A stretch of 64,000 nt of DNA, from NCBI GenBank assembly GCA_016861205.1, contig BOKX01000001.1, positions 456,539 to 520,538 on the forward strand, in the 5' to 3' direction. Below the pieces are notes generated by a model. It had not been told where the DNA came from. It was given only the letters and a program-made list of their open reading frames with translations, and searched no databases. Origin of the DNA: Patescibacteria group bacterium (GTDB lineage Bacteria > Patescibacteriota > Microgenomatia > UBA1400 > PJMF01). Positions 10,852 to 40,284 of the stretch are shown piece by piece; within the stretch, counting starts at the first letter, position 1, and each line of letters begins with the position of its first letter. A program made the translations under genes and the position numbers.

Positions 10852-10898
10852 TTTGGCATAATGGGAGAGTGTCACACTCACCTTCATCTCCCACTTTG

Positions 10899-12500: not shown

Positions 12501-12572
12501 GTAACACTAGTCCTTCCTCGACAAGATCGAGTCGCTTATCCCATTGTCCAGCATTAACTGTATAATGAGGCC

Positions 12573-12923: not shown

Positions 12924-12926
12924 CCT

Positions 12927-14940: not shown

Positions 14941-14946
14941 AAGCTT

Positions 14947-16464
14947 ATGCAACGCGTAAAAAGTTGGGCCACCCGCCACTACCTCGGACTACTAGTGATC
15001 ATTGTTGGCTTTAGTTTGCTGACACGTGTCATTCGGCTCGACCAACCACGAGATTACATCTTTGATGAGGTGTACCATGCCGTTACTGTTAAGTTGATTG
15101 CACGTAACGATGTTCGCGCCTATGAGTGGTGGAATCCACCAGTTGAACCTAACACGGCGGTCGACTGGCTTCACCCACCACTTGCTAAGTACACCCAAGC
15201 TGCGTTTGTTGTTTTACTCGGCGAAAATCCACTCGCGTGGCGTTTAAGTGCTGCCCTAACAGGTGTGATCGTCATCGTCTTAACCGCCAAGTTAGCCTAT
15301 CGTTGGTCAAATGACCATCTGGTCAGTCTCCTGGCCGCCGGCCTAGCTAGTCTTGATGGGTTGCTACTAGTTCAGTCCCGAATTGCTATGAATGATATTC
15401 ACGTCACAGCCGCTATCCTGGCTGCGATATGGTTGTACCTGGAGTTCAAGGCACGCCAGCCCGCTGGACAACTTCTTCCTCATGGCCGGCACACTTGGTA
15501 TTGGTGGTTAGCTAGCATCGCCATGGCAGGTGTCGCTATGGCCACCAAATGGTCGGGTTTATTTGCCGTGGTTTGGATTGCAGGCTGGGAAACCTGGCGT
15601 ACTCTTGATTGGTTAATTAAAACCACGCGACCGTCACGCTCCCTGTTTACCAAGTGGCTGACTATCTCGATCATCACCATTAGTTTCTTACCAATAACCA
15701 TCTATACTGCTGCCTACTCCCATATGTTTTTGCAGGGCAAAAGTTTAGTGTGCCGTGGTCAAGAAGTGGATCAAGGCAAGTGTTACTGTGATCAGACATC
15801 GTCGTGGTGGGTAACAGGCTTGAGCCGGGTGCTACCTGGGCAACGTTCAAACTTGGAAGCCCTCGAAAGTCGCGGCGGTTGCAAACGGCTGCTCTCACAC
15901 TTTAGCGAACTGCATAAACAAATCTGGTGGTACCAAACTAACTTAACTGCTACCCATGACTATCAGTCACGACCCTGGCAGTGGTTCTTTGACCTGAAAC
16001 CAGTTTGGTTCCACGTTAAGTATTATGAGGATGGTCGAATTGCAAACATCTATGCATTTGGCAATCCAGCCGTGATGTGGGGTGGCGTCGTTGCTGTGTT
16101 TGCCACTGTTGCTTTCTTAGTTCGAGAATTACCCAAACCTCGACTTTCTGGTGAGTGGTGGCAGTTGGCCACAATGTTGAGCGCCTACTTACTTGTTTGG
16201 CTACCTTGGCAGTTCTCTCCTCGAATCATGTTTTACTATCATTACACGCCAGCAGTGCCGCTACTGTGCATACTTCTGGCTTGGTGGTTACATCGGTTGA
16301 TGACTTGGCGCGTAGCTGCAAAACCAGTTGGCCGTTACATCATCGGCACGTACGTTGCCGCCTGTCTGCTTGCTTTTGTAGTGTGGTTCCCACACTGGAC
16401 TGGCTTACCTGTTAGCCCTGAGTGGATGAAACAAATCTACTTTGTGATTCCGAGTTGGAAATAA
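14947..16464 (+). CDS. PMT-family (GT39-like) polyprenyl-phosphate-mannose protein mannosyltransferase-like GT-C enzyme
   Basis: Multi-TM protein with an FDEVYHA loop-1 acidic motif (DE) characteristic of PMT/GT39 and a C-terminal membrane domain. Confidence 0.65.
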   Translation: MQRVKSWATRHYLGLLVIIVGFSLLTRVIRLDQPRDYIFDEVYHAVTVKLIARNDVRAYEWWNPPVEPNTAVDWLHPPLAKYTQAAFVVLLGENPLAWRLSAALTGVIVIVLTAKLAYRWSNDHLVSLLAAGLASLDGLLLVQSRIAMNDIHVTAAILAAIWLYLEFKARQPAGQLLPHGRHTWYWWLASIAMAGVAMATKWSGLFAVVWIAGWETWRTLDWLIKTTRPSRSLFTKWLTISIITISFLPITIYTAAYSHMFLQGKSLVCRGQEVDQGKCYCDQTSSWWVTGLSRVLPGQRSNLEALESRGGCKRLLSHFSELHKQIWWYQTNLTATHDYQSRPWQWFFDLKPVWFHVKYYEDGRIANIYAFGNPAVMWGGVVAVFATVAFLVRELPKPRLSGEWWQLATMLSAYLLVWLPWQFSPRIMFYYHYTPAVPLLCILLAWWLHRLMTWRVAAKPVGRYIIGTYVAACLLAFVVWFPHWTGLPVSPEWMKQIYFVIPSWK

Positions 16465-16484: not shown

Positions 16485-19400
16485 TTATTCCTGTGTTTGG
16501 TTGGGTGACCAACTCTCAAAGAACGCCCCCGACGTCAGCTCTGCAGCTACTTCACGAAGTAAGTCAGCCAAAAGTGCCACTTCTTCGTCTGGGAGTTCCA
16601 GTGTTCTGGTGATAAGTTTGCCACTGGTTTTATCGGCTTGTACAAACTCGAAGCATCCATCGACAACTGTGGCATCAAAAGTTTTATCAAGCTGAGTCAG
16701 TAGCTTATAAAACAACAACTGACGTTTATATCCTCCTTGCAAAGCAGGTGGCAGCTGTTGTTCTCGTTCTGACAGCTCAGCTTGGCTCGACTGAGTACTC
16801 GCTGTTAGTTCTCCCAACGTCCGAGGGTTTCCCGTTTTGTAATCGATAACTCGAACCAACTTTTCCTTTGGATCAAGCCAATCAATCCGATCAATTCTCC
16901 CTGTCAGTGGCACATCATCCAACCTAACTCGCTGCGAACCGGAGCCAAAGCGACGTTCAATCAGCCACACCAGTGGCAAGTCATTTTGCAGTTTTGACTC
17001 AAAGTACTGGGTCAAAACATTTCGACCTTGGGTCAGGCGGGCTTGCAACTCATCAGTGGTGAGCGGCTCAGCTTCCAACGCTGCTGTGAACCACTGTAAA
17101 ACTTGGTTGAGCGTAGGCTGCTCATCTCGCAAGCGAGCTTTGAAAAATCGCTCTAAGCTCTGGTGCACCGCCGACCCAAAAGCTAACGTTGCGGACGGCG
17201 GCTCTTGCAACCTCAGTAAGTATTGAAACACAAAATCATCAGGTGACCTCAAATACGTGTTCAAAGCGCTGGCTGACCAAGCAAACGAAGCTATTGATCG
17301 ATCGAAGAGGTGTTTTTGATCAATCCAGGCGAGTGGCGAGGTTGGTGGTTGTCGCCAACCAGCGGGTTCAGTAGTTTGAGAGGCAACCCAGCGATCGAGC
17401 TCGGCCTGATCCCAAGGCTGACTCCAAGATTTCAGCTCCGTCAAAAACTCACTGGGCAATGTCGCCTTTAGCTGCGAGCCCTGGGTGCTCTGGGCTGGCA
17501 GCGTCAAAATCAGCTCGTGTTGAGCCCGAGTAACCGCCACGTACATTAGTCGACGCTCATCTTCATTGCGATCCTTTTCAGTGATATCCGCGTGTTTGAT
17601 TAAACCAGCTGGCAATGGTAGGAGTTCACGACGGCTGGTGTTACCCCAACGACCATCGATACAACCTGACACAAAAACAGTTTGCCACTCACGACCTTTT
17701 GCTTTATGAGCAGTACTCAGGGTCACTTTGCCGACGGTATGCTCGTCACTTTCAATCTCAATTGGTATCCGATATTGGGTGTACAACTCGAGTCGAGCAA
17801 TCACCCCTGCAAGCTGCAACTGTGGTTGCACTAAAGTCCAGGCTGTAATCTCACGCTGAAGGGCAGCTAAACTGGCTGCTAACAATGGCCAGTTCGGCTG
17901 AGTTTTGATCCAAGTTAACCAACCGCTCTCTGTTAAAACTTCCCAGATCCAGCGGTTAATCGGAACCTGAGTCTCTCGCTGCAACCAAGTCTGCCAGCGC
18001 TCTGCAACTTGCTGGAGTTGGTAAAACTCGAGTTGAGTTAAACCTGGTGGCGTCTGATACTTGTCCAGTAACTGAAAATCTTGCGTCAGCAGCGACCAGA
18101 GACTCAACCGACTGACTTTGGCTGCCTGTGCGACTTGAATTACCGAACCAACTGGAATCCCCCACCATGGTTTTATGAGCAACTGAAACAACGCATAATC
18201 ATCAATACCTTGTTGAAGCCGATGCAGTGTTTGCCACCACGCAACCAGATCTTGGATGGCTGGCTCAAGCAGGATATTCTGACCTCCCTGGATAGTCACG
18301 GGAATCGATCGAGCCTGGAACGCGGGCACCAAGCTGTCGACTTCTTTGTTCTGTCGAAATAAAACTGCTATTTCATCAGGTTTAACTCCCGACTTGATTC
18401 GGGCTGCGACTTGATCAGCAATGAACTCAGCCTCCAGCTCAGCTGTTGGTAATTCAGCTACAGCCACAATCCCTGCCATGGGACTAACTGTTTGCAACGC
18501 CTGATCAGCCATCTGGGTAATGGTGCCAGCCCGCAGCTGATTGTGATGTATCAAGCCAGCTGCCGCGTCGTACATTAACTGTGGGCAGCGATAACCTGTC
18601 TCCAGAACAATAATCTCGGCAGCCGGATATTGAGACCTGAAAGCCAACATGTTTTCAATTGATGCACCCTGGAATCGGTAAATTGACTGGTCAGGATCAC
18701 CCACCACACAAATGTTCGCTTGCTCACCCCAAAAGCTGGCTAAATGTGAAACCAGTTCATTTTGGGCAGCATTGGTGTCTTGATACTCATCAACTAGAAC
18801 ATAAAGATACTTCTCTTGATACTCCGCTCGTAGTTCATCATTTGTTTGCAACGCTTGATTCACTCGGGTAATCATGTCGTCATAGTCATAGTGTCCAGCT
18901 TGCTGCAGTTCTTGCTCATAGGCTTCGTACACCGCTGCTAACTCTTGCCACTTAGCAACTTGCTTCTGACCAGCCAACAGCTTGGCTTTAGTCAGCTCAC
19001 TAGCTTGATCCTCGAGATCAGCCGTCTCCGCAGCCACCTGCTCGCGCCACTCCGCCACGGTGATCGCTTCTTTCTTTAACTGTGAAATTGCCGAACCAAG
19101 TTTGGATACGTACAGATCCGGGGCGTTCAACGGTCTGAGTGCAGACAGTGGCAAACGATGAACCAAGCGTTTAATCAACAACAATCGATCAACGTCACTC
19201 AATGGCTGCGCCGACTGGGTCAAGCCAAATATGTCTGGATGCATCATGAGGATTTCATTTGCTAATGCATGAAATGTCTGAATACTGACTCGGTAACCAA
19301 CCGCCCCAACCAAGTTGACGAGTCTGCGACGCATTGTGGCTGCAGCCGATTCAGTAAACGTCAACGCCAAAATCGCCTCTGGTGGCGTGTCAGTTTGCTG

Positions 19401-19571
19401 CAAAATGTGAGCCATACGCATAGTAATAACTTGCGTTTTACCAGTGCCCGGCCCAGCAATTACTAAAAGCGGTCCTTCAATACTTTCCACAGCCTGACGT
19501 TGGCGCTGGTTGAGTTGCGCCAAAGCTGTGGTATATATTACATTTTTAGAACCCATAATAGTTGTTGACAT
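16485..19571 (-). CDS. UvrD/PcrA-family SF1 DNA helicase fused to a C-terminal PD-(D/E)xK (RecB/AddA-type) nuclease domain
   Basis: Walker A is AGPGTGKTQV and helicase motif II is VLVDEYQDTN, followed by a roughly 300-aa C-terminal region with a nuclease-like D...E.K pattern (VIDYKTG). Total length is 1028 aa. Confidence 0.85.
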   Translation of the reverse strand: MSTTIMGSKNVIYTTALAQLNQRQRQAVESIEGPLLVIAGPGTGKTQVITMRMAHILQQTDTPPEAILALTFTESAAATMRRRLVNLVGAVGYRVSIQTFHALANEILMMHPDIFGLTQSAQPLSDVDRLLLIKRLVHRLPLSALRPLNAPDLYVSKLGSAISQLKKEAITVAEWREQVAAETADLEDQASELTKAKLLAGQKQVAKWQELAAVYEAYEQELQQAGHYDYDDMITRVNQALQTNDELRAEYQEKYLYVLVDEYQDTNAAQNELVSHLASFWGEQANICVVGDPDQSIYRFQGASIENMLAFRSQYPAAEIIVLETGYRCPQLMYDAAAGLIHHNQLRAGTITQMADQALQTVSPMAGIVAVAELPTAELEAEFIADQVAARIKSGVKPDEIAVLFRQNKEVDSLVPAFQARSIPVTIQGGQNILLEPAIQDLVAWWQTLHRLQQGIDDYALFQLLIKPWWGIPVGSVIQVAQAAKVSRLSLWSLLTQDFQLLDKYQTPPGLTQLEFYQLQQVAERWQTWLQRETQVPINRWIWEVLTESGWLTWIKTQPNWPLLAASLAALQREITAWTLVQPQLQLAGVIARLELYTQYRIPIEIESDEHTVGKVTLSTAHKAKGREWQTVFVSGCIDGRWGNTSRRELLPLPAGLIKHADITEKDRNEDERRLMYVAVTRAQHELILTLPAQSTQGSQLKATLPSEFLTELKSWSQPWDQAELDRWVASQTTEPAGWRQPPTSPLAWIDQKHLFDRSIASFAWSASALNTYLRSPDDFVFQYLLRLQEPPSATLAFGSAVHQSLERFFKARLRDEQPTLNQVLQWFTAALEAEPLTTDELQARLTQGRNVLTQYFESKLQNDLPLVWLIERRFGSGSQRVRLDDVPLTGRIDRIDWLDPKEKLVRVIDYKTGNPRTLGELTASTQSSQAELSEREQQLPPALQGGYKRQLLFYKLLTQLDKTFDATVVDGCFEFVQADKTSGKLITRTLELPDEEVALLADLLREVAAELTSGAFFESWSPNQTQE

Positions 19572-19713: not shown

Positions 19714-19742
19714 TTGATTTTACCTGGTTACATGGTAAAATC
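19714..19742 (+). promoter_or_regulatory. putative sigma70-type promoter of the giant glycosyltransferase gene, embedded in a 9-bp inverted repeat
   Basis: TTGATT, a 16-nt spacer, then TAAAAT. The inverted repeat GATTTTACC / GGTAAAATC (19716-19724 and 19734-19742) overlaps both elements. Confidence 0.35.
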
Positions 19743-19781: not shown

Positions 19782-22700
19782 TTGAATACATCGCATTATA
19801 TTTCAACTGTGTCAGCCGGAACTTCCCCCCCACGAGCATTTCCCAAAATCGACATCATTATCCCGGTCAAGAATGAGGCGGCTAATTTGTCACCGCTGAT
19901 GGCGCGATTAGACACCAGTTTGCGAACAGCTCATATCAAGTATCAAGCCATCATTGTTGATGATCACTCCACCGATGATACTCGAGTAATTGCCAAAAAA
20001 TTAGCTCAAAAGTACCCGATAAAAGTCCTCACTAAAAAAGGCAAACCTGGAAAAGCCTACTCCATTCTCGAGGGAGCGAAAGCCGCTACCAGTGAGTGGC
20101 TAGTCATGATCGATGGTGACTTGCAGTACCCACCGGAAGCCATTCCTGACATGGTAAAACTGATTGACCAACACGGAGTGGTTGTCGCCCGTCGAATCAG
20201 TTATGAGGGCTCGCGACTCCGTCGACTTGGCAGCCGAGCAGTGGCTTGGTTCACCGGTCAGTTTCTACATGGAATTAAGGTCGACGTTCAATCAGGTCTG
20301 AAAATCTTTAAAAAAGATTTCTTGAATTACTTACCTGAAAATGAAGTGACCCCTTGGGCACTAGACCTGCCACTCTTACATGCAGCCCTAGAACTGGGTT
20401 ACACCTTGGGTGAAGTCGAGATTACTTTTGAAAAACGGATTCACGGTAGCTCGAAACTTAGCTTGCTAAAACCAACTTTCGAAATCGGCATGGCCGCTGT
20501 AAAACTTAAACTACGGTCAAGTCAACCGATCCCCATCCCGGCCCACAGTCACCAAAACATGATTGGTGCGGGATTAATTCACCGTCGACGCCAGTTTATT
20601 ACCCACAGCACACTTCACCACCGTCAAACCGCGCTCCACACTATTACTCGTAATCAACGCCGCTTGATTTTAGCAATTTTGGCCTCAGTGGCTGTTGGGA
20701 TCTTTTTGAATCCATTGGAAACGGCGATCGTGGTCGTAGCGTTTCTGAGTTTTGTGTACTTTGTAGATGTGATTTTCAACTTTTTCTTGATCCTGAAGAG
20801 CTTACACTCTCCACCAGAACTGGAGTTCTCAACAACTGAAATCAGCGAACTAAACGATAAAGACCTACCGATTTACACCATTCTTTGTCCGCTCTACAAA
20901 GAGGCTCACATTTTGCCTGGCTTCGTAGCAGCAATGGAGAAGCTTGACTGGCCAAAACACAAGCTCGACGTCATCCTGCTGTTTGAAGAAGACGACCTAG
21001 AAACGATCGAAACCGTTAAAACCATGAAGCTGCCCAAGCATTTCCGAGTTGCCATCGTGCCTGATTCACAACCCAAGACCAAACCGAAAGCGTGTAACTA
21101 TGGTCTCAACTTAGCAAAGGGTGAGTATGTCGTCATCTATGACGCTGAGGATATTCCTGAACCAGCTCAGCTCAAAAAAGCCTATCTAGGTTTTCAAACC
21201 GTTGGTCCAAAAGTGAAGTGTCTACAAGCTAAACTCAATTACTACAATCCAAACCAAAACTGGCTAACACGCTTTTTCACGGCTGAGTATTCACTCTGGT
21301 TTGATGTGATTCTGACTGGCTTGCAATCTATTGAGACTAACATTCCTTTAGGTGGCACCAGTAATCACTTCCGGACCACTGATTTACTCGCCCTCCAAGG
21401 TTGGGATCCATTCAACGTTACTGAAGACTGTGATCTCGGTATTCGTTTGTTCAAGGCAGGCAACAAAACGGCGATCATCGACTCAACCACATTGGAAGAA
21501 GCGAATAGCAACTTCAAAAACTGGATTCGCCAACGCTCCCGCTGGATTAAAGGGTACATGCAAACCTACTTAATCCACATGCGTCAGCCACAAGAGTTTG
21601 TGCGTACTCAGGGTTGGCACGCCCTCTTATTCCAGCTAACCATTGGTGGCAAACTCGCCTTCATTTTGATCAACCCCCTTCTGTGGGTCTTGACCATTTC
21701 TTACTTTGCGCTCTATGCCTATGTTGGGCCAACAATCGAGGCACTATACCCCAGCGTTGTGTTCTACATGGCTGTCACTTCACTTATTTTTGGTAACTTC
21801 ATGTTTATTTACTACTACATGATCGGCTGTGCCAAGCGAGAACACTGGGGCCTTATTAAGTGGGTATACCTAATTCCTTTCTACTGGCTGATGGTAAGTA
21901 TTGCCGGCGCCATCGCTTTGTATCAGTTGATTGTCAAACCACATTACTGGGAAAAAACGGTGCACGGGTTGCATTTGAAGAAAGCGAGTCTCGCCAAAAA
22001 AGCGAGTAAAGTTGCCAAAAAAACTACCCATCAGGTCATGGTTGAAGCCATCGCACAAGAGAAGCCAAGTATCACTGGTCGGCTGCACATTTTTGGATAC
22101 TCTGATTTCAAAAACAAGTGGCTGGAACGTTTAGAACTGAAGCATAAGTACGTTTCGTTAAAACGACTTGTTCACCAACTCTTGTTTGGCGAGTATCGGG
22201 GTGGTTTGTGGTTAGTGTTAGCTACTGTCATTGCGAACTTCCTCAATATGTTGACGAGCTTTTATCTCGGTCATGAACTAGAGTTTTCTGACTTTGCATT
22301 GATCAATACCTTTATAAGCTTACTCTATCTCTTGGGCATTTTAACAAGTTCACTCTCGGCGACTGTTAACCATCGCGCAGCGTTACTGCTCGGTAAGTTT
22401 AAGCAAAAAAGTGCACGTAACTTTTGGACACACGTTCAAAAAAGAGCAGTTATTGTGGCTATCTTGATGTCTCTTTTGTGGTTGGTGAACATTCCTTGGT
22501 TGACTAACTTCTTTAACATGAGTACCCCATTACCTCTCATCATTTTTACACCACTGATCTTCAGTGGTCTGCTAGGAGCAGTGAATGAGGGATACCTTCG
22601 TGGTCGTCTGCTGTTTGAAGTTTTGGCTATCACCACTTTGATCGACCCAATTGTCCGCTTGGGTCTCAGCTTGCTATTCGATGCGGTAAACCTGGAATAC

Positions 22701-24647
22701 TATATGTATGTACCCGTGATGATCTCCGCAATCACGGCTACAGTAATTGGTGGTTGGTACGCAGCCAAAGGCGACACTGGCGTTAAAATCATTAAAGAGT
22801 TTCGATTATCACTCCCATTCTTTAACACTGCGTTGATTTCCAAGTTATCTGCTATCGCGTTTTTTAGTCTCGACAACGTCATTGTGGCTCATTACCTCTC
22901 AACGGAAGAAACAGGTATGTATGGACTGCTGGGTTTGATCGGTAAAATGATTTTCTTTGCCGGGAGTTTGACGGTCGGATTTATTCTGCCGCTAGTTTCG
23001 CATAAAGAAGGTCAACATCAAAAAAGTGAAGCTGTCTTCCACAAACTGCTCCTCTTAACAGTCAGTTTAAGTTCTCTAGCATACATTGCGCTGGGCTTAG
23101 TCTTGCCGTCGATAGCTCCTTACTTCTTTGGCTTAAAACTGAATGCGATTAGAGGCTATCTGCCACTGTATGCACTTGGTATTTTGCTCTACACCATCTC
23201 CCAAACAGTTGTTCAATATCGGCTGGCAAAGCGATCTTACTTTTTCTCCATCGCCTCGTTTTTAGTAGCTATTATTCAGGTGGCAGGCTTGACCATTTAT
23301 CACAACTCACTGACTCAAATAGTGAATGTAATGTTTGTGAGTGGTTTACTCAATGCAGTTGTCCTATTTTCCTTGCATCACTGGTACCACAAAATTGAAG
23401 CCCCATTAAGTAATGTACGAGATTTTCTGGACTTATTTAATCCCATCCCACGTTTGACTCGACCTTTAGAGACCAAGGATCACTACCGGATTTTGATCCT
23501 TAACTGGCGAGATACCAAACATGCTTGGGCTGGCGGAGCCGAAAAGTACATCCACGAAGTCGCTACCCGGTTGGCCGCTGCTGGGCATAAAGTAACAATG
23601 TTTACGGGAAATGATGGCCATCATCCCCGCAACGAGGTTGTTGATGGTGTTCAAGTGGTCCGTCGTGGTGGTTTTTACACCGTGTACATTTGGGCATTCC
23701 TGTACTATGTCCTCCGGTTTAGACCATATGTTGACATCGTGATTGACTGTGAAAACGGCATCCCATTTCTCACACCCTTATATGTTCGCAAACCCATCTT
23801 GTTGCTGATTCATCACATTCACCAAGAAGTCTTTATGACTCACCTGCGGTTTCCTTTTTCCGAAATCGCCGCCCTGATTGAAAGTGACCTGATGCCATTT
23901 TTGTATAAGCACAAAACGCTGATCACGGTTTCCGAATCATCGAAAGATGAAATGATTGGGTTGGGACTAGGTAATACTCAAACGGTTAAGGTCGTTAACC
24001 CTGGCATCGACACCCACCTTTTCACTAAAAAACGAAAGACCAGCCAGCCATCGCTAGTGTACCTGGGCCGGCTGAAACCATACAAACAAATTGATGTGGC
24101 CATAAAAGCCTTTGCCAAAGTCATAGCTGATCATCCGACAGCCACGTTCACGATCGCTGGAAGTGGTGAGTCACTGGAATCACTTCAGCAACTCTGCCAA
24201 AAACTAGGCTTAACATCCCACGTGACGTTCAAACCCTCGGTAACTGACGAAGAAAAAGCCAAACTATTTGCTGAAAGTTGGGTGGCAGTGCAGCCATCAA
24301 CAATTGAAGGTTGGGGCATTACTGTCATTGAGGCAAATGCGGCAGGAACACCAGTAGTTGCATCTAATGTTAAGGGTCTTCGCGACTCTGTAGTTGATGG
24401 CAAAACAGGCATCCTGGTCAAAGCTGGGCAAGTCAGTGAGTTTGCTGCAGCAATCAACAAACTGTTTAGCAATACAAAATTCAGAGCATCACTGTCTCGT
24501 GAAGCCGTGAACTGGGCCAAACACTTTGATTGGAATGTTAGTTACAATAATTTTAATCACATACTCGATGAAACAATTCAGAAGCATCAAACCCATCACA
24601 ATAACGCCTATTCTAAGGAGGTCTATGACCAAAAAATCACTCGCTGA
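19782..24647 (+). CDS. 1621-aa multidomain polysaccharide synthase with four fused modules: a DPM1-like GT2, a processive-type GT2 with QxxRW, a Wzx/MOP-like flippase domain, and a GT4
   Basis: Residues about 20-230 form a GT2 domain (DIIIPVKNE...IIVDDHSTDDT...DGD). About 350-700 form a second GT2 (DAED, QRSRWIKG = Q(Q/R)xRW) with trailing TM helices. About 720-1180 form roughly 12 TM helices resembling polysaccharide-biosynthesis/Wzx flippases. About 1190-1610 form a GT4 domain (EGWGITVIEANAAGTPVVAS, E-x7-E motif). The start is TTG at 19782 or a downstream GTG. Confidence 0.7.
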   Translation: MNTSHYISTVSAGTSPPRAFPKIDIIIPVKNEAANLSPLMARLDTSLRTAHIKYQAIIVDDHSTDDTRVIAKKLAQKYPIKVLTKKGKPGKAYSILEGAKAATSEWLVMIDGDLQYPPEAIPDMVKLIDQHGVVVARRISYEGSRLRRLGSRAVAWFTGQFLHGIKVDVQSGLKIFKKDFLNYLPENEVTPWALDLPLLHAALELGYTLGEVEITFEKRIHGSSKLSLLKPTFEIGMAAVKLKLRSSQPIPIPAHSHQNMIGAGLIHRRRQFITHSTLHHRQTALHTITRNQRRLILAILASVAVGIFLNPLETAIVVVAFLSFVYFVDVIFNFFLILKSLHSPPELEFSTTEISELNDKDLPIYTILCPLYKEAHILPGFVAAMEKLDWPKHKLDVILLFEEDDLETIETVKTMKLPKHFRVAIVPDSQPKTKPKACNYGLNLAKGEYVVIYDAEDIPEPAQLKKAYLGFQTVGPKVKCLQAKLNYYNPNQNWLTRFFTAEYSLWFDVILTGLQSIETNIPLGGTSNHFRTTDLLALQGWDPFNVTEDCDLGIRLFKAGNKTAIIDSTTLEEANSNFKNWIRQRSRWIKGYMQTYLIHMRQPQEFVRTQGWHALLFQLTIGGKLAFILINPLLWVLTISYFALYAYVGPTIEALYPSVVFYMAVTSLIFGNFMFIYYYMIGCAKREHWGLIKWVYLIPFYWLMVSIAGAIALYQLIVKPHYWEKTVHGLHLKKASLAKKASKVAKKTTHQVMVEAIAQEKPSITGRLHIFGYSDFKNKWLERLELKHKYVSLKRLVHQLLFGEYRGGLWLVLATVIANFLNMLTSFYLGHELEFSDFALINTFISLLYLLGILTSSLSATVNHRAALLLGKFKQKSARNFWTHVQKRAVIVAILMSLLWLVNIPWLTNFFNMSTPLPLIIFTPLIFSGLLGAVNEGYLRGRLLFEVLAITTLIDPIVRLGLSLLFDAVNLEYYMYVPVMISAITATVIGGWYAAKGDTGVKIIKEFRLSLPFFNTALISKLSAIAFFSLDNVIVAHYLSTEETGMYGLLGLIGKMIFFAGSLTVGFILPLVSHKEGQHQKSEAVFHKLLLLTVSLSSLAYIALGLVLPSIAPYFFGLKLNAIRGYLPLYALGILLYTISQTVVQYRLAKRSYFFSIASFLVAIIQVAGLTIYHNSLTQIVNVMFVSGLLNAVVLFSLHHWYHKIEAPLSNVRDFLDLFNPIPRLTRPLETKDHYRILILNWRDTKHAWAGGAEKYIHEVATRLAAAGHKVTMFTGNDGHHPRNEVVDGVQVVRRGGFYTVYIWAFLYYVLRFRPYVDIVIDCENGIPFLTPLYVRKPILLLIHHIHQEVFMTHLRFPFSEIAALIESDLMPFLYKHKTLITVSESSKDEMIGLGLGNTQTVKVVNPGIDTHLFTKKRKTSQPSLVYLGRLKPYKQIDVAIKAFAKVIADHPTATFTIAGSGESLESLQQLCQKLGLTSHVTFKPSVTDEEKAKLFAESWVAVQPSTIEGWGITVIEANAAGTPVVASNVKGLRDSVVDGKTGILVKAGQVSEFAAAINKLFSNTKFRASLSREAVNWAKHFDWNVSYNNFNHILDETIQKHQTHHNNAYSKEVYDQKITR

Positions 24648-25350
24648 ACAAGCCAAAGATTTAGCAATCAAAATAGTGAGCCAACTTAGAGCTCCTATCA
24701 TGCGGGCAGTTAAACCAAACTCAAAGTATTGGCTTGCGACCCGATCACTGGAGCCACTCAGTATGAAGTTTGGCTTTGATCGGGGAACCCCAATTGACCG
24801 ATTTTGGATGAATGACTTTTTGACCAAAAATCAGAGCTTGATCAAAGGTCACTGCTTAGAAGTGACTGATGATGCATATCTCGTTCAGTACGGGGGTAAA
24901 AAGGTCACCAAAACGGATGTGCTTGACATCGACCGAAAAAATAAAAAAGCCACTATTTATGGTGACATCCAAAACTTAGACATGATCAAAGATGATACTT
25001 ACGACTGTATCATCCTCACTAATGTCTTGGGTATTATCCCAGACTACGAAGCCGCTGTCCGCGAGTGCCACCGCATTTTAAAACCAGGCGGAACTTTGCT
25101 GTTAACTGTCTCGTCGTTCAGTCCGACCCGTGACTTGGAGGCAAACTTGTGGCGCTTTACGGTCACCTCGGCCAAGTTTGTTTTTGGCAAGTATTTTTCA
25201 CCCAAAAAACTGGATATCCAGTCATATGGCAACGTCTTAACAGGGCAGTGTTTCTGGGTAGGAATGTCACAAGAAGAACTCACTCTTGAAGAGTTGTCGT
25301 ACCAAGATCCACGCTTCTCATGTTTGGTGGCGGTGAAGGCCACAAAGTAA
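24625..25350 (+). CDS. class I SAM-dependent methyltransferase-like protein (motif I degenerate)
   Basis: AAGGAGG lies 5 nt upstream of the ATG at 24625, which overlaps the upstream stop. Post-I, II and III motifs are present (DCIILTNVL, LKPGGTLLL) but the GxGxG motif is not obvious. Confidence 0.5.
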   Translation: MTKKSLAEQAKDLAIKIVSQLRAPIMRAVKPNSKYWLATRSLEPLSMKFGFDRGTPIDRFWMNDFLTKNQSLIKGHCLEVTDDAYLVQYGGKKVTKTDVLDIDRKNKKATIYGDIQNLDMIKDDTYDCIILTNVLGIIPDYEAAVRECHRILKPGGTLLLTVSSFSPTRDLEANLWRFTVTSAKFVFGKYFSPKKLDIQSYGNVLTGQCFWVGMSQEELTLEELSYQDPRFSCLVAVKATK

Positions 25351-25354
25351 AACT

Positions 25355-26278
25355 ATGTCTCGTGCTACTTGCCAGCCCACTATCTCAATCGGTATCCCTG
25401 CTTTTAACGAAGCTGCAAATATTAAGCAGTTGGTAGTAAGTTTGTTACGACAAAAGCAATCCGGTTTTACTGTGACCGAGATCATTGTGGCTTCAGATGG
25501 TAGTACTGATCAGACCGTTTCGATTTTAAAGAGTTTAAATGAGCCGAAAGTGGTGATTTTGGATAACAAAGATCGCAAAGGACAGGCGGCTCGTCAAAAT
25601 CAAATTCTCAAAAAAGTTTCCAGTGATGTGCTGGTGTTGATTAATGCCGATGTAGTCATCGATGATCCAAACTTTTTAACATGCATCGCGGAACCAATTT
25701 TGACTGCAAACGCAGATCTCGTTTCAACCTCGATTAGTACAGTTCCAAGCGAGACGTTCGTGGGTCAAACTCTTAACTACAGTTTAGAAATGAAGAACCG
25801 CGCCTTTGAAAGTTACCAGCATGGTCAAAATATCTATACCTGTCATGGTGCGGCAAGAGCCTTTTCCCGCAAACTGTATCGACACTTTGAGTTTCAGGCT
25901 AGTGTCGGTGAAGATGCCTACTCATACCTGTACTGCGTGATCAACGATTACAAGTATGTTTTCACCTCTCGAACTGTAGTCAAAATTAAGTCACCAGTCA
26001 CAATCAAGGATCACCAACATCAAAGCGTTCGATTCTTTCAAACTGATCGCAAACTCAAACAGTACTTTGCGACAAACGTTCTCCAAAAAGCCTATCACCT
26101 GCCGCTGCAGTTTATGATTGCGTCCTACAGTAAGTTCTTATGGACTCATCCACTACATGCCGGCGCCTATGGGCTGATAGTCATGTTCATGAAGTTGCAG
26201 TCATATCGGCTGGACTTAACAAGTAACACCTGGGCAATTGCTCACAGTTCAAAAAATAAACTAACGCCAACTATTTAG
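25355..26278 (+). CDS. family-2 glycosyltransferase (DPM/DPG-synthase-like)
   Basis: ISIGIPAFNEAANI...IIVASDGSTDQT...DADV, a GT-A fold with the DxD motif. Confidence 0.75.
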   Translation: MSRATCQPTISIGIPAFNEAANIKQLVVSLLRQKQSGFTVTEIIVASDGSTDQTVSILKSLNEPKVVILDNKDRKGQAARQNQILKKVSSDVLVLINADVVIDDPNFLTCIAEPILTANADLVSTSISTVPSETFVGQTLNYSLEMKNRAFESYQHGQNIYTCHGAARAFSRKLYRHFEFQASVGEDAYSYLYCVINDYKYVFTSRTVVKIKSPVTIKDHQHQSVRFFQTDRKLKQYFATNVLQKAYHLPLQFMIASYSKFLWTHPLHAGAYGLIVMFMKLQSYRLDLTSNTWAIAHSSKNKLTPTI

Positions 26279-26279
26279 T

Positions 26280-27089
26280 ATGTCACTATTTTCATTCACT
26301 ACCAGCATTCGCAGGCGTATCTACCTAACTCTTGGTTGGTTTGATCGAATTGGTCATCGGAAAACCCCACTCGCAGTTCTTTGTTATCACAGTTTGAACA
26401 CTGATACCTGGCGATTCAGTATCGATGTGTCTGAGTTTGAAGCGCAAGTTACGTGGCTACAACAAGAGTTTGAGATCATTGATTTTAAAACGTTTCAGAA
26501 CTACTTAGCTGGGCGAGTTCAGCTGAGTCGACCATCTGTTTTGTTAACCTTTGATGATGGGTATCAAAACGTACTGACAGCGGTTCCATTTCTTGCCAAG
26601 CTAGGTATCAAACCTGTCATGTTTGTATTGGCTGAAACCAACCAGGCCAATCGACCAGAACTGGGTAGCTCTCTTCCGTTGATGACACCTGCGCACCTGA
26701 AACAACTCATCAAAAATGGTTGGGAAGTAGGGTGTCACAGCGCAACCCATGCCGATTTTTGGTCTTTGACACCACATGAGGTAGACCGTCAGGTACAACA
26801 AGCTAAAAAGCTACTTGAGAAACAGATCGGTCACCAAGTACGTGCTTTCGCCTATCCAAAAGGTCGTTACACACCAGCCATACTTTCAATGATGAAAAAA
26901 GCTTCTTTTTCATTTGGTTTCACCATGGACGACGGTGCTGTGAGTCCTGGACTCGATACAGTTCGGATTCCCAGAATTGGTGTTGACCGCACACACACGC
27001 TTAGCGAGTTTAAAACTCTAATGTCACCAAGCAATATTTGGTTCCGAAAGATTATTAAAAACTCACCGATAGGCAGATACATCCAATGA
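26280..27089 (+). CDS. polysaccharide deacetylase (NodB homology / CE4)
   Basis: LTFDDGY motif 1 and the HSATH His motif (GCHSATH). Confidence 0.8.
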   Translation: MSLFSFTTSIRRRIYLTLGWFDRIGHRKTPLAVLCYHSLNTDTWRFSIDVSEFEAQVTWLQQEFEIIDFKTFQNYLAGRVQLSRPSVLLTFDDGYQNVLTAVPFLAKLGIKPVMFVLAETNQANRPELGSSLPLMTPAHLKQLIKNGWEVGCHSATHADFWSLTPHEVDRQVQQAKKLLEKQIGHQVRAFAYPKGRYTPAILSMMKKASFSFGFTMDDGAVSPGLDTVRIPRIGVDRTHTLSEFKTLMSPSNIWFRKIIKNSPIGRYIQ

Positions 27090-28285
27090 AAAAGAACCTC
27101 GGCTCAATAGCTATCATTACCAAGTACTTTTGGCCTGTGGCGGCTGGAATTGAGACGAACATTTTAGAGACATATGCTTCACTGGTCAAAACCGGTTGGG
27201 ATGTAAGTGCGTACACTACCAAAAATAGTTTGACAGCTAGCAATGCACATCCCCAAGCTGAGGAAACAGTCCGAGGTATCAAAGTTCATCGAGTCACCTG
27301 GTTGCCATTGCTCGGATACTGGCCAAACATCAATCTCAACCAAACAGATCTGGTTTGTCTCCATAACTTTAACGTGGTACCTCACTTTTGGTTCATGGCT
27401 CTTACGGGTATTTTGAAAATGTTGGGCCGTAAAAAGTACGCTCTCATTTTGACCCCGCACGGCGGTTACAACCCTGAGTGGCGTATTTTCCGAGAACCTC
27501 AACGCTCAATCAAACAGTGGTATCACCGCGTCATCGGCACATTTATGATTAATGCTACAGTGGATGCGGTACGAGCAGTATCAGAATGGGAGAGACAAGA
27601 GATGATCGCTTCGGGACTCAAACCTGAACTCATCACTGTCATCCATAATGGGATAGAGAATCAAGCTTTCGCAGATAATGAAAAAGAAGTTTCCCCAGAA
27701 TTTAAAAAACGAGTGACACAGCTTGGTCGCTACTTGATTCAAATTGGCCGTATTCATACTATTAAAAATTACGAAACTACTATTAAAGCTTTAGCACAGT
27801 TACCCAAGGATATAAAATTTGTGATTGCCGGACCAGTTGGTGAGGAGTGGTACTTAGCTAAACTGCATCAGCTCATTAGTAAACACAATCTAGAAGGACG
27901 AGTCATTTTTTGGGGTGTTGTACGCGGAGCCGAAAAGTACTATCTCATTAAACACGCCCAGATGATGGTTCACATGGCGATGTGGGAAAGCTACTGCAAT
28001 GTAGTCCATGAAGGTATGAGCCAGGGTTTAGTGTGTTTAGTAGCCAACAACACCGCCTTACCATTGTTGATTAAAGACGGCGTGAACGGGTATTGCCTAC
28101 CGACTAAAAATGTCAAAACCTTGGTTGCCAAAATCAAGTATGTGCTTGATCCTAAACAGACGGCTGTCATGAAGAAAATTGGCCGGTACAATAAGACCCA
28201 CGTCACGGAGCACTCATGGGAAAACGTCGCCAAAAAAGTAAACGAGCTTTATCAAGAACAACTAATCAAGAGACGCGGCAAGTAA
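27086..28285 (+). CDS. family-4 (GT-B) glycosyltransferase
   Basis: The C-terminal domain has the E-x7-E-like signature (ESYCNVVHEGMSQGLVCLV) and the expected GT-B two-Rossmann organisation. Confidence 0.7.
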   Translation: MKKNLGSIAIITKYFWPVAAGIETNILETYASLVKTGWDVSAYTTKNSLTASNAHPQAEETVRGIKVHRVTWLPLLGYWPNINLNQTDLVCLHNFNVVPHFWFMALTGILKMLGRKKYALILTPHGGYNPEWRIFREPQRSIKQWYHRVIGTFMINATVDAVRAVSEWERQEMIASGLKPELITVIHNGIENQAFADNEKEVSPEFKKRVTQLGRYLIQIGRIHTIKNYETTIKALAQLPKDIKFVIAGPVGEEWYLAKLHQLISKHNLEGRVIFWGVVRGAEKYYLIKHAQMMVHMAMWESYCNVVHEGMSQGLVCLVANNTALPLLIKDGVNGYCLPTKNVKTLVAKIKYVLDPKQTAVMKKIGRYNKTHVTEHSWENVAKKVNELYQEQLIKRRGK

Positions 28286-28287: not shown

Positions 28288-29883
28288 ATGCGAAAAAGCA
28301 TCGGTACCATCACCACTGTGGTCGGAGCGCTAGTACTCATAGTACTAGCGGCTTTGGCGATCAGCACCTTTATCAAGGGTGACTACATCAATGGCCATTT
28401 TGTAAATCAAACCTCGTTTGACACGTCAATTGGTGGTCCCTTTGAACTCACCAACAGTACCTCACGCTACGTCTTAACACAAGCAATGGTTGATAACCAT
28501 AGTTTTGCCCTCACTGACAGTCAAGCTCGCTATGCCAGCCCTGACTTGGTGAAGTTTAAAGATACCTATCTATCTATTTTCACACCTGGTATTTCTCTAC
28601 TGGGGATACCTCTTTACTGGCTCGGTAAGAGTTGGGGTGTACCACAATTGTTAACGTATCTCCTCAATCCGGTGGTCCTGTTACTCGACATTGGCTTAGT
28701 GGCACTCGTGTCGCGAAAACTGGGTTCATCACCAAAACTGGCCATCATGAGTGGACTCATCTTTGCTTTCGCCACCAATGCACTAGTCTATGCCAACACA
28801 TACACCCAGCACGTCGTCACAGTGGCCTTGATTTGTGCCAGCTTACTTTTAGCAGTGTCCAAACTACGTTGGTGGCAGAGGGTTTTGCTTGGCGTTGTAT
28901 ATGGAGCAGCGGTGTTGGTAGATATACCGAACGCTTTTATGCTGCTTCCACCAGTTTTAGTGGCAATCTTCAAAGATGTTGAACTCACTACCATCAAAGA
29001 TCGCGTTAAACTCCAGCTACCGCTGACCGGTGTTTGGCTCTTAATTGGGGTTTTGCCATTCCTCGTACTCTTTGGCTATTACAACTATCAGCTAACCGGT
29101 TCGTACTTCACCCTTGGTCAGTTTATTGGTCGATATGACTACCCAGACACCAATCCAACTGTCAAAACAGCTGAAACCAAAGCCGCTGAGTTGCTCCAAA
29201 CTGCTACCCCATCGGCTAAGTTACCGGAACTTGGGTTTGGTCTCGATCTTCCATTCGAAAGCCGCTCACAACTTGAGGGTGCACACATCCTGTTAACTAG
29301 TCGTCAGCGCAGCTGGTGGTACTACTCACCGGTAGTGTGGCTGGGCGTACTCGGGCTTACTATCGCTTACCTCACCAGCACTACTAAAAAGACTGCAGTC
29401 ATGGTTATTAGTGTCATTGCCATTGATATTTTACTGTACTCAAGTTTTGGTGATCCCTGGGGTGGTTGGGCCTTTGGTCCCCGTTATTTGATCCCGGCTG
29501 CAGCACTACTTACTGCTGGAATCGGTACTGTAGCAACCTATTGTTTGCGACGTCGATGGCTCGGGCTCGGTTTAGCATTAGTCCTCGCTATGACTGTTGT
29601 GTTTAGTGTTTACACTAATGTGCTAGGCGGTGTCACAACTGCAGCTATTCCACCAAAAGGTGAAGCTGAAGCACTTCAGAATGATACACCTTGGACCACA
29701 CTCTACAATCAACGGCTTGTCACACAGAACCGCATCTCAAGCTTAGTATTTAATGAGTACCTGAAAGACATCGTTACTGGTCGGGAGTTCATTACATATC
29801 TGACTGCATTTTGTAGCAGTTTAATTGGAGTTATGTTTGTTTTAGGTTGGTGGGAAAACCGGAAAGTCGGCACCCAAAAATAG
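28288..29883 (+). CDS. polytopic membrane protein, probable GT-C-type glycosyltransferase or polymerase
   Basis: 531 aa with about 11 TM helices and a large first extracytoplasmic loop. It lies inside the glycosyltransferase operon, with ATG at 28288 3 nt after the upstream stop. Confidence 0.4.
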   Translation: MRKSIGTITTVVGALVLIVLAALAISTFIKGDYINGHFVNQTSFDTSIGGPFELTNSTSRYVLTQAMVDNHSFALTDSQARYASPDLVKFKDTYLSIFTPGISLLGIPLYWLGKSWGVPQLLTYLLNPVVLLLDIGLVALVSRKLGSSPKLAIMSGLIFAFATNALVYANTYTQHVVTVALICASLLLAVSKLRWWQRVLLGVVYGAAVLVDIPNAFMLLPPVLVAIFKDVELTTIKDRVKLQLPLTGVWLLIGVLPFLVLFGYYNYQLTGSYFTLGQFIGRYDYPDTNPTVKTAETKAAELLQTATPSAKLPELGFGLDLPFESRSQLEGAHILLTSRQRSWWYYSPVVWLGVLGLTIAYLTSTTKKTAVMVISVIAIDILLYSSFGDPWGGWAFGPRYLIPAAALLTAGIGTVATYCLRRRWLGLGLALVLAMTVVFSVYTNVLGGVTTAAIPPKGEAEALQNDTPWTTLYNQRLVTQNRISSLVFNEYLKDIVTGREFITYLTAFCSSLIGVMFVLGWWENRKVGTQK

Positions 29884-29884: not shown

Positions 29885-31504
29885 ATGCGAATGCCATCAC
29901 TTATTCTCACTGTTTCTTACAAGTGGTTCGACAAGACTTACCAGTTTTTTGCTCGAACAGCTAGCATGTGGGTCGTGCTTTTATCAGTGCTACTTTCGAT
30001 TGGAGCCTACTACTACTTTCAGTCAGTTCACTTAACTTTGGCGTACAACGACGCGCGTTCGCATCTCAATATTGGTCGCCGGGTCGTGGAGGGACTAAAA
30101 CCAGGCATGGCTCAGCTGGGCAGTGTTTGGCTCCCATTACCACATATTTTGATGGTGCCAACAATTTGGAATGACTACATGTGGCAGACTGGTCTAGCTG
30201 GTGCGGTGCAGTCGATGATTTCATACGTGGCCACCATTTTATTAATCCGCCTCATTCTCAAAAAAATCGGGGTCGATACTTTGGGCCAAGTAGTTGGCAT
30301 GTTAGTGTTTGCTTTAAACTTAAATATTTTATATTTACAGTCTACAGCCATGACCGAGCTACTATTGATCGGCACAATGACGGCTGGCGTGTACGAGTTA
30401 ATAAACTACTACCATGATCAGACTATTTTGTCTTTGATAAAAGCATCATTCTGGATTATGTTGTCGACGCTGATCCGTTACGATGGTTGGTTCTTGTGCT
30501 TCTATGGTTTGGCGTTGGTCGTCATTCAAGCGATTTTGCAAAAAAAGTGGCGAAAAAGTGAAGGTATCTTCTTCCTGTACTGCACTCTGGCAGGATTTGG
30601 TGTTTTCCTGTGGCTGATGTGGAACACAGCTATCTTCAAAGATCCCTTGTACTTTGCGTTCGGTCCATACTCTGCTCACGCTCAGCAGGAGCAAATTGAA
30701 GCCGCTGGCCAGCTCATCACCAAACACGATTGGCTGACATCACTCAAAACTTACTGGTATGCCATGGCCTACAACAGTGGCACATTGGTAGTTGTTTTAG
30801 GTTTGTTAGCTGCCGTTGGCTTATATCTAGATAAAAAAATTGCCTCTAAAACACGACTGGCCCTTAGCGTGCTGTTAGTCCCATTAATGTTTAACATCCT
30901 TGCACTGTACCTCGGTCACTCTGTTCTGTTTGTCCAGGGCATTAACGGTGACACGTGGTTCAACGTGCGCTATGGAATCATGATGATGCCGTCCCTGGCC
31001 GTATTTATCGGTTATCTCGTGTACCGGTTAAAATCACTTCGCTACTTACTACTTGGTGTGTTATGCGCCCTGTATTTGTTCCAGTTCACTTCGTTTGATG
31101 CCGTCACCATCGATGATGGCCGGGTCGGCTCCAGTCAGAAGAATGTGTCTGAAGTTAGCGGCTGGTTACGTGCCCACGCAGCCAACGAAAAAGGCTTTGT
31201 TTTGATCAGTGCTGCCTCACACGATGCTATTATTTTCTCGACGGGCATGCCGATGAAACGGTTCATCCACGAAGGTACTGGCAAATATTGGGAAAGTGCG
31301 ACAACTACTCCAGATCGCTGGGCGCGTTGGATTGTGATGCGGACCAATGATAACAACGATCAAACGTTTAAGTTAGTTAACCAATCAGGTGTGCTGTACA
31401 AATACCAATTGGTTAACTCATTCCCATTTGCTGACATCTACCAATTAAAAGATGAGTACTTACCCAACCTCCAAACGGAAAGTGTACTCGGCCCTCAAAG
31501 GTAA
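29885..31504 (+). CDS. polytopic membrane protein with a C-terminal soluble domain, probable GT-C-type glycosyltransferase
   Basis: 539 aa with an ArnT-like topology (about 11 TM helices followed by about 130 soluble residues). It is contiguous with the other glycosyltransferases. Confidence 0.4.
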   Translation: MRMPSLILTVSYKWFDKTYQFFARTASMWVVLLSVLLSIGAYYYFQSVHLTLAYNDARSHLNIGRRVVEGLKPGMAQLGSVWLPLPHILMVPTIWNDYMWQTGLAGAVQSMISYVATILLIRLILKKIGVDTLGQVVGMLVFALNLNILYLQSTAMTELLLIGTMTAGVYELINYYHDQTILSLIKASFWIMLSTLIRYDGWFLCFYGLALVVIQAILQKKWRKSEGIFFLYCTLAGFGVFLWLMWNTAIFKDPLYFAFGPYSAHAQQEQIEAAGQLITKHDWLTSLKTYWYAMAYNSGTLVVVLGLLAAVGLYLDKKIASKTRLALSVLLVPLMFNILALYLGHSVLFVQGINGDTWFNVRYGIMMMPSLAVFIGYLVYRLKSLRYLLLGVLCALYLFQFTSFDAVTIDDGRVGSSQKNVSEVSGWLRAHAANEKGFVLISAASHDAIIFSTGMPMKRFIHEGTGKYWESATTTPDRWARWIVMRTNDNNDQTFKLVNQSGVLYKYQLVNSFPFADIYQLKDEYLPNLQTESVLGPQR

Positions 31505-40210: not shown

Positions 40211-40284
40211 TCGGGGAGACAGGACTCGAACCTGCGACCTCACGCACCCCATGCGTGCATTCTAGCCATCTGAACTACTCCCCG
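40211..40284 (-). tRNA. tRNA-Pro (anticodon GGG)
   Basis: 74-nt cloverleaf. Acceptor stem is CGGGGAG/CTCCCCG. D-arm is GTTC-AGATGGCTA-GAAT. Anticodon stem is CACGC/GCGTG with loop ATGGGGT (G37). T-arm is GCAGG-TTCGAGT-CCTGT. Discriminator is A. Confidence 0.85.

Follow-up and report, generated by a model that had tools for sequence, protein, structure and literature searches.

The forward-strand open reading frame (ORF) at 19782..24647 of a 64,000-nucleotide stretch of DNA from a Patescibacteria group bacterium (assembly GCA_016861205.1, contig BOKX01000001.1, positions 456,539 to 520,538; hereafter the window) encodes a genuine, conserved single-chain membrane protein of a bacterium of the Patescibacteria (Candidate Phyla Radiation, CPR). 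The protein is composed of four autonomous modules: a family 2 glycosyltransferase resembling enzymes that act on polyprenyl phosphate (GT2a), a second family 2 glycosyltransferase resembling polysaccharide synthases (GT2b), a transporter domain of the MOP superfamily with 12 transmembrane (TM) segments, and a family 4 glycosyltransferase (GT4). Coordinates given below for this gene and its operon refer to the forward strand of the window.

A conserved four-module gene

The ORF runs for 1621 codons from a TTG, its coordinates including the stop, and its translation contains no internal stop. ORF calling and translation agree on the uninterrupted frame with four consecutive modules that had been reported in a preliminary description of this DNA, with one adjustment at the 5' end. 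The methionine at codon 10 is kept in 97% of 120 homologues and an identical database protein (P0001) is 1612 amino acids (aa) long; the GTG at 19809 is accordingly the most probable start, for a protein of 1612 aa. Hydropathy analysis places a TM hairpin at residues 295-338 and a TM bundle at 612-713, followed by 12 TM segments between 809 and 1200. Every motif quoted in the preliminary description (DGD at 111-113, DAED at 454-457, QRSRW at 584-588 and E1509-x7-E1517) is present and invariant across the family (36-121 sequences), as is an additional TED motif at 547-549.

A homologue search covering 5.8 billion proteins, with clusters from NCBI, JGI, ENA and Logan assemblies, identified more than 120 protein clusters of 1540-1640 aa that match the ORF collinearly at 48-61% identity and 97-98% coverage. 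Clusters with names come from Patescibacteria, Microgenomates, Gottesman- or Woesebacteria and are annotated 'glycosyltransferase', and P0001 is encoded on an independent 43-kb contig. The homologous fusions that the preliminary description proposed to look for are thus abundant, in these clusters and at many Patescibacteria loci, and where it had raised a frameshift splitting the gene, a single collinear ORF was found in the clusters and in approximately 18 species-representative genomes. The lower GC content ascribed to the locus roughly holds, at 0.435-0.462 over 20-28 kb compared with approximately 0.49-0.51 in the flanks.

Four modules of known classes

GT2a (residues 10-240; 19809..20501) is a GT-A domain that resembles the DPMS/ArnC/GtrB-like class of polyprenyl-phosphate glycosyltransferases. 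It matches Glycos_transf_2 (PF00535) over residues 25-151 with an E value of 2.8e-36, and its nearest relatives among PDB sequences are Pyrococcus DPMS (5mlz, 2.9e-20), ArnC (4.7e-12) and GtrB (1.1e-9), in keeping with the DPM1/GtrB-like enzyme described earlier. Within an AlphaFold model of 1200 residues the module superposes on DPMS, ArnC and GtrB at a root-mean-square deviation (rmsd) of 2.5-3.4 Å over approximately 230 residues (Foldseek; 233 columns at rmsd 3.0 for 5mlz), and the aspartates of its DxD motif, D111 and D113, are invariant across the family. No NCBIfam equivalog cut-off was reached (ArnC, 60 bits against 529; AglJ, 54 against 325; PgfS, 54 against 500), placing GT2a outside every named equivalog with a function predicted at the level of its class.

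The second module opens with a conserved GAGxxHxxxxFITH segment followed by a two-helix TM hairpin (20505..20801; hairpin at residues 295-338, helices 281-300 and 302-331 in the numbering of the AlphaFold2 (AF2) model). Because homologues consisting of GT2b alone begin at query residue ~224-263, both the segment and the hairpin belong to GT2b, giving it a 2+4 TM architecture. The hairpin that the preliminary description had placed after the first glycosyltransferase therefore exists, as part of the second one. The catalytic domain (residues 341-610; 20802..21611) is a BcsA-like and hyaluronan synthase (HAS)-like GT-A domain with the DAED, TED and QRSRW motifs, and the C-terminal membrane bundle (residues 611-735; 21612..21986), which ends in a conserved HYWEKTxHGLH, should contain four TM helices, judging by parity and the positive-inside rule.

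GT2b matches Glyco_tranf_2_3 and Glyco_trans_2_3 (PF13641/PF13632) over residues 365-647 with E values of 2e-29 and 2e-23. BcsA is its closest solved relative by sequence (1.2e-7) and aligns with the model over 445-450 columns at an rmsd of 5.2-5.3 Å, such that the membrane helices are included in the fold match; hyaluronan synthases match as well. These comparisons corroborate a processive-type enzyme with its own C-terminal TM bundle, as had been suggested, with processivity itself being predicted. The module is the most conserved stretch of the protein (column identity 0.75-0.86), and identity to a relative in another locus (L002) is 80% in GT2b, 51% in GT2a, 34% in the MOP domain and 54% in GT4. 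Scores against the NCBIfam models CelA, PgaC and TIGR03111 all fall far under cut-off, and the window protein has neither a PilZ nor an MshEN domain, nor a BcsB/PgaD-type partner.

Homologues of GT2b outside Patescibacteria, at 52-56% identity, carry two to six N-terminal MshEN domains, which are receptors for cyclic di-GMP (c-di-GMP). Together with the invariance of TED and QxxRW and the BcsA fold match, these homologues lead us to read GT2b as an exopolysaccharide-type synthase. Their genes lie at L077 9059-11353, L079 6922-10944 and L082 7361-11389, in Paraconexibacter (Actinomycetota), Dehalococcoidia and Chloroflexota. NfrB, a c-di-GMP-controlled exopolysaccharide synthase, also has an MshEN domain (PMC8669469), and the domain order of the tandem MshEN-GT2 proteins is the reverse of that in NfrB.

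GT2b is connected to the third module by a linker rich in lysine and arginine (residues 736-795; 21987..22166), which is predicted to be disordered (predicted local distance difference test (pLDDT) score <50 at model residues 732-766) and is the seam of the fusion; 19 Lys/Arg lie within residues 714-808. It is in this region that clean gene boundaries fall in L020, L043, L051, L054, L057 and L059, where the upstream gene stops just after HYWEKTxHGLH and the downstream gene starts approximately 15 residues before TM1 of the MOP domain.

The third module (residues 796-1205; 22167..23396) is, by its homologues and its predicted fold, a separate 12-TM domain of the MOP superfamily, Wzx/PST type, for which flipping activity is predicted. 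The window's own segment gave no Pfam match even at E<=10 and no NCBIfam match. Among 31 homologous segments, Polysacc_synt (PF01943) was matched by seven (best 1.3e-11), SpoVB by four, and Polysacc_synt_3 (PF13440) and MatE by two each; a precomputed PF01943 match is present in approximately 15 of 120 full-length homologues. An AF2 model of the block, built on the homologue alignment, reached a pLDDT of 88.1 and a predicted template modelling score (pTM) of 0.86, and all 49 of its Foldseek matches in the PDB at E<=1e-3 are MOP transporters, led by the MATE protein 6gwh (2.6e-7), WzxE 9g95 (2.9e-7; TM-score 0.68/0.73) and MurJ 6nc9 (5.8e-7). D1031, G1045, Y1047, K1055 and P1070 are invariant or nearly so. 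The Wzx-like flippase region of the preliminary description is therefore upheld through its fold and homologues, though without a direct family match of its own; that the 12 TM segments might be a mere membrane part of the preceding GT2 is contradicted by the MOP fold, by the existence of free-standing forms of 410-520 aa and by the disordered linker in between. Orexin-receptor matches, obtained when the profile of the block was compared with PDB sequences, were rejected as spurious effects of TM composition.

An exhaustive search with the MOP-block profile returned 1241 representative clusters at E<=1e-30. The subfamily occurs as free proteins of 410-520 aa, as MOP-GT4 proteins (725-860 aa) and as parts of larger fusions, among them MOP-GT4-GT2, MOP-GT2-GT4, MOP-GT4-GNAT and MOP-APH-GrpB. 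Two of these proteins, P0130 (955 aa) and P0183 (1195 aa), have the MOP domain fused to an APH phosphotransferase and GrpB, and to GT4 and a GNAT acetyltransferase. Such fusions to enzymes other than glycosyltransferases hint that a MOP flippase may routinely be tethered to whichever enzyme completes its substrate.

The C-terminal module (residues 1236-1621; 23487..24644) is a GT-B domain with the E1509-x7-E1517 motif, both glutamates being invariant. It matches Glyco_transf_4 (PF13439) at residues 1251-1412 (7.8e-14) and Glycos_transf_1 (PF00534) at 1416-1576 (1.3e-42), confirming the proposed GT4 assignment; with it, all four module assignments agree with profile hidden Markov models, solved structures and fold comparisons. 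Its closest solved relatives are MshA (1.5e-18), PimA (1.1e-14) and PimB' (1.4e-10), and the NCBIfam model Agl16 aligns over nearly its full length at 3e-26, under cut-off. A match to PF20706 ('GT4 in conflict systems') was dismissed, as it overlaps the generic GT4 models.

A natural series of fusions and splits

To place the fusion among its relatives, one genome per GTDB species was scanned with the full-length alignment as query, and modules were mapped on stop-to-stop ORFs of the best 80 loci; the same scan with a single MOP sequence as query gave no confirmed relative. At least 595 genomes carry a relative of the GT2b module. Four-module genes in one ORF were found in the approximately 18 species-representative genomes mentioned above, from Woese-, Gottesman-, Dojka- and Doudnabacteria and others.

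The remaining relatives form a series of smaller fusions and separate genes. GT2b-MOP-GT4 fusions are present in L015-17, L029 and L032. In L020, L043, L051, L057 and L058 a GT2a-GT2b gene is adjacent to a MOP-GT4 gene, and in L054 and L059 GT2b alone precedes MOP-GT4. A GT2a-GT2b-GT4 fusion adjoins a free MOP gene in L035 and L039, and GT2b or GT2a-GT2b is followed by MOP in L047, L056, L061 and L062. GT2a-GT2b alone and GT2b alone also occur. A further four relatives (L018, L019, L026, L052) are split into overlapping ORFs, and these 'splits' are probably frameshifts. The arrangement of the genes amounts to a Rosetta-stone pattern, indicating that the modules work in one pathway and that the window protein is its maximal fusion. 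The physical coupling of synthesis, extension and translocation in one chain, which the preliminary description had envisaged, would be in line with this recurrent fusion and adjacency.

Many TPA_asm records of metagenome-assembled genomes titled 'uncultured Gammaproteobacteria', 'Bdellovibrionales' or 'Pseudomonadales' (L005, L008, L010, L012, L013, L024, L027-L030 and others) carry a Patescibacteria-type locus with 45-57% identity. Their taxonomic labels are probably wrong.

An operon with two probable GT-C-like membrane proteins

The fusion ORF is the first gene of a tightly packed operon. At its 3' end the fusion ORF contains both the ATG and the AAGGAGG ribosome-binding site of the following gene, which encodes an S-adenosylmethionine (SAM)-methyltransferase (24625..25350); translation of the two genes is therefore probably coupled. 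Next come, closely spaced at 25355..28285, genes for a GT2 (307 aa), a Polysacc_deac_1 deacetylase (269 aa, without signal peptide) and a GT4 (399 aa), and then two genes for polytopic membrane proteins, U555 (28288..29883; 9 TM peaks) and U539 (29891..31504). Genes for a 2-hydroxyacid dehydrogenase and a secreted protein of 410 aa, 3' of U539, close the operon. Gene order after the fusion is the same in L002, whose fusion protein is 53% identical.

Several lines of evidence make it probable that U539 and U555, conserved partners that the preliminary description did not mention, are GT-C-like transferases. The two are distant paralogues (hhalign probability 93.9%, E 1.6e-7). U539 is homologous to C-terminal extensions found on GT2b in Ktedonobacteria and Chloroflexia (phmmer 2.8e-90 for L069, 2.5e-87 for L050 and 1.7e-45 for a third), and these extensions match PMT_2 at 30-35 bits, the gathering cut-off being 26.1. 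L050 is a single GT2a-GT2b-PMT_2 ORF of 1544 aa. Free homologues of U539 match PMT_2 or PMT in three of six cases, and one of four U555 homologues has a weak PMT_2 match. Just after TM1, U539 has an invariant aspartate (D56, in Y-x-D-A-x-S-H) and U555 a conserved P-F-E; the catalytic acid of GT-C enzymes sits at the corresponding position (PMC8035078). The profile comparison of U555 and U539 with a PMT-family protein and a 550-aa protein encoded upstream in the window, for which single sequences served as templates, was negative.

The co-occurrence of the genes was assessed in those 61 loci whose downstream flank extends for 8 kb or more. GT2b has U539 alongside it in 55 of them. Of the 41 loci with a GT4 module, 37 also encode U555, as do 2 of the 20 that lack GT4 (Fisher p 9e-10, uncorrected for phylogeny). 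These associations suggest two sub-circuits, one consisting of GT2b (with or without GT2a) and U539, and the other of GT4-MOP and U555.

The Ktedonobacteria fusions of GT2b with PMT_2/GT-C-like extensions are 970-1544 aa long (L050 8800-13431, L069 10732-14613, L073 6173-9082). Two U539 homologues, at L055 17170-18849 (a Parcubacteria metagenome-assembled genome, MAG) and L081 12184-13593 (a Minisyncoccia MAG), each have one in-frame stop, which may point to a pseudogene, to recoding or to a sequencing error. The last gene of the operon (32420-33652, forward strand) encodes the 410-aa protein, which starts with an unmistakable signal peptide and ends in a CarboxypepD_reg-like domain; by analogy with synthase operons, where such enzymes are usual, it might be a glycan-processing enzyme. 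In L002 an Apiosidase-family gene lies in the corresponding neighbourhood.

A promoter and terminator scan of the window did not rise above shuffled sequences, and TTGATT-16-TAAAAT at 19714-19741 was the only site suitably upstream of the fusion. It lies in a 237-bp intergenic region, on the other side of which is a divergent gene (16485-19571, reverse strand) for a 1028-aa UvrD-helicase/PD-(D/E)XK nuclease (AddA-like).

Other loci in the window

A second glycan locus at 9355-16464 (forward strand) has genes for a 498-aa protein whose GT2 and chitin-synthase-like matches are weak, a 550-aa protein with no assigned function, a Glycos_transf_4 (WecA/MraY-type) protein, a UbiA prenyltransferase and a PMT-family GT-C; the UbiA and GT-C pair recalls decaprenyl-phosphoribose-type pathways. 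At 36-40 kb the GC content drops to 0.33-0.36 from approximately 0.50, next to tRNA-Pro(GGG) at 40210-40284 and recA. This stretch encodes an 892-aa protein (36990-39668, reverse strand) in which an Mrr_cat restriction-nuclease domain is fused to an nSTAND1 NTPase, and in composition and content it resembles a defence-type STAND NTPase island acquired by horizontal transfer.

A proposed pathway and its alternatives

The account that we prefer, giving it somewhat better than an even chance of being right, combines the four-module chain with its GT-C-like partners. GT2b would polymerise a beta-linked backbone and extrude the chain through its own TM bundle, and GT2a would load a sugar on polyprenyl phosphate. 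At the inner leaflet GT4, perhaps assisted by the soluble enzymes that the operon encodes (GT2, GT4, methyltransferase and deacetylase), may build or extend a glycan linked to lipid. Flipping of the lipid-linked sugar or sugars would fall to the MOP domain, and U539 and U555 would transfer them, outside the membrane, to the nascent polymer or to another envelope acceptor. Fusion would provide stoichiometry and proximity and would not be essential, as relatives use the same modules as separate genes.

The predicted topology is compatible with this scheme. GT2a, GT2b and GT4 would all be cytoplasmic, with the hairpin after GT2a, four TM helices after GT2b and then the 12 of the MOP domain. An even number of helices after GT2b is expected because the linker has 19 Lys/Arg and both termini of MOP proteins are cytoplasmic, and the positive-inside charge distribution agrees with cytoplasmic catalytic domains.

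A number of observations weigh against the proposed pathway. GT2a has no TM helix of its own, and its polyprenyl-phosphate acceptor is suggested by its nearest relatives only. The QxxRW motif is also present in non-processive lipid glycosyltransferases, and the ORF matches Glyco_transf_21 at an E value of 1.6e-6. For the MOP domain there is the silence of the family models on the window's own segment. Five GT2a-GT2b-GT4 fusions (L027, L033, L034, L044, L048) have no MOP gene within 10 kb; given these MOP-less forms and the clean split genes, the covalent link is not obligatory, which weakens the claim of coupling. The 1200-residue AlphaFold model has a pTM of 0.62 and a disordered seam, and so lends no support to rigid packing of the modules, the point that the preliminary description proposed to check with such a model. 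With regard to the partners, the PMT_2 matches behind the GT-C assignment are near threshold and found in homologues, the U539 family profile gave no match to a solved GT-C among PDB sequences, and the co-occurrence statistics carry no correction for shared descent.

Of the alternatives, a pure lipid-linked-oligosaccharide pathway is the likeliest, and we consider it distinctly less probable than the preferred account. Here GT2a would prime, and GT2b, GT4 and the operon glycosyltransferases would extend a single polyprenyl-phosphate glycan non-processively, without polymer export by GT2b. The MOP domain would flip the finished unit, and the GT-C-like proteins would transfer it to protein (S-layer, pilin) or wall, much as in archaeal dolichyl-phosphate-based Agl pathways and protein O-mannosylation. 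In favour of this pathway, the classical cargo of Wzx-type domains is a short lipid-linked unit, U539 homologues resemble the PMT family, and further along the operon are genes for a methyltransferase, a GT2, a deacetylase that looks cytoplasmic and a GT4. There are also the NCBIfam matches to archaeal N-glycosylation proteins, of GT2a to AglJ (1.3e-14) and of GT4 to Agl16, but every Agl match is far under its family cut-off. Moreover, GT2b possesses TED and QxxRW, the 2+4 TM architecture and a BcsA match of ~450 columns that takes in the membrane helices, and in other phyla it occurs at >50% identity by itself or joined to c-di-GMP receptor domains, as would suit an exopolysaccharide synthase that acts autonomously.

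A lipoglycan pathway (lipomannan- or lipoteichoic acid-like) appears improbable. GT4 and/or GT2b would glycosylate a glycerolipid anchor on the cytoplasmic face, the MOP domain would flip the glycolipid, and the GT-C-like proteins would elongate it outside using the polyprenyl-phosphate sugar from GT2a. In Actinobacteria, PimA/PimB, Ppm1 and GT-C mannosyltransferases are an analogue of such a system. In its favour, PimA and PimB' are among the closest solved relatives of GT4, and GT2a comes nearest to DPMS, which belongs to the same enzyme class as Ppm1. A pair of conserved operon genes encodes GT-C-like proteins, and the Glyco_transf_21 family matched by GT2b comprises lipid glycosyltransferases. 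However, the top matches of GT4 are of the MshA type rather than PimA, no lipid-anchor-specific enzyme was identified, and the MshEN-regulated homologues and BcsA-like membrane bundle of GT2b fit a secreted polymer better.

A more radical proposal, which we regard as more doubtful still, is a hybrid export route outside the Wzx/Wzy, ABC-transporter and synthase pathways, in which one polypeptide would serve as primer, polymerase and exporter together. GT2a would make a polyprenyl-phosphate primer and GT2b would elongate it processively, with the chain staying lipid-linked; the MOP domain, not the synthase pore, would move the lipid-linked chain or its reducing end, and U539 would ligate it to the envelope. 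If true, this would overturn current pathway concepts; otherwise the fusion does not.

Finally, an artefact, be it a frameshift or assembly error merging genes or a 12-TM block that is merely the GT2 membrane part, is very hard to credit: overlapping frameshift-like ORFs and clean split-gene relatives do exist, but the clusters that are collinear over 97-98% are independent and number more than 120, the identical protein lies on an independent contig, and the predicted fold of the block is that of an entire MOP transporter (TM-score ~0.7 to WzxE and MATE), which is free-standing elsewhere and here follows a disordered linker.

Implications and comparison with known systems

Wzx/MOP flippases are hard to study, because in most cases neither the cognate substrate nor the partner enzymes are known, and the partners are encoded by separate genes. 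A Wzx-type domain tethered to three glycosyltransferases, with every intermediate split form available among relatives, would make substrate hand-off and flippase specificity testable in one polypeptide, and likewise the interplay of a synthase-type polymerase with lipid-linked sugar decoration. The locus is found widely among Patescibacteria, Microgenomates included; these ultra-small and mostly uncultured organisms have envelope glycans that are essentially unknown and likely matter for host attachment. Two conserved 'hypothetical' membrane proteins, U555 and U539, gain a probable role as GT-C-like transferases. The analysis also brings out a GT2 synthase family that is conserved across phyla, paired with a GT-C-like protein and, in Chloroflexota and Actinomycetota, linked to c-di-GMP receptor domains. 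In the literature we found no description of a Wzx/MOP-glycosyltransferase fusion or of the fusion family in CPR bacteria.

The nearest parallels are the multi-component transmembrane glycosylation systems GtrB/GtrA/GtrC, CsbB/GtcA/YfhO and GacI(+GacJ)/GacK/GacL (PMC8035078), in which a GT-A polyprenyl-phosphate-sugar enzyme and a flippase (Wzx-type in GacK) serve a GT-C that acts outside the membrane on a polymer made otherwise. The window locus holds all three component types together, the GT-C type of U539 and U555 being probable. It differs in that GT-A and Wzx-type flippase are covalently joined, also to a BcsA-like synthase and a GT4, in that GT2a is without TM helices of its own, and in that its GT-C-like proteins fall outside all named families.

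With BcsA, class I hyaluronan synthase, PgaC and NfrB, GT2b shares the D, DxD, TED and QxxRW motifs and a 2+4 TM arrangement, as in viral HAS. In contrast to them, it has no PilZ or MshEN domain and no BcsB/PgaD-type partner, and is instead accompanied by the GT-C-like U539. The MOP domain has the 12-TM two-lobe fold of WzxE (TM-score 0.68-0.73) and SpoVB and, more distantly, of MurJ and MATE. Unlike the Wzx/PST flippases, it is too divergent for any family model and is embedded between enzymes; in relatives the MOP domain is N-terminal to GT4, GT2 or GNAT. XagB, a putative glycosyltransferase of an uncharacterised biofilm exopolysaccharide encoded in the Xanthomonas xagABCD operon (PMC3609779), is the automatic JGI label of several members of the fusion family; XagB has a single module, and the likeness is one of label only.

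The concept of a synthase and a flippase in a single chain has a precedent in MprF, which joins a lipid-modifying synthase to a flippase of its product, and in PplT, which is also fused to GT-A/GT-B domains (bioRxiv 10.1101/2022.03.11.483950). The window protein differs from these fusions in having a flippase of the MOP fold and four modules instead of two, and the substrates of PplT are phospholipids. Each module of the window protein thus belongs to a known class, and GT-A enzyme, Wzx-type flippase and GT-C are known to cooperate as separate proteins; their combination in a single chain, as yet uncharacterised, is widespread in Patescibacteria.

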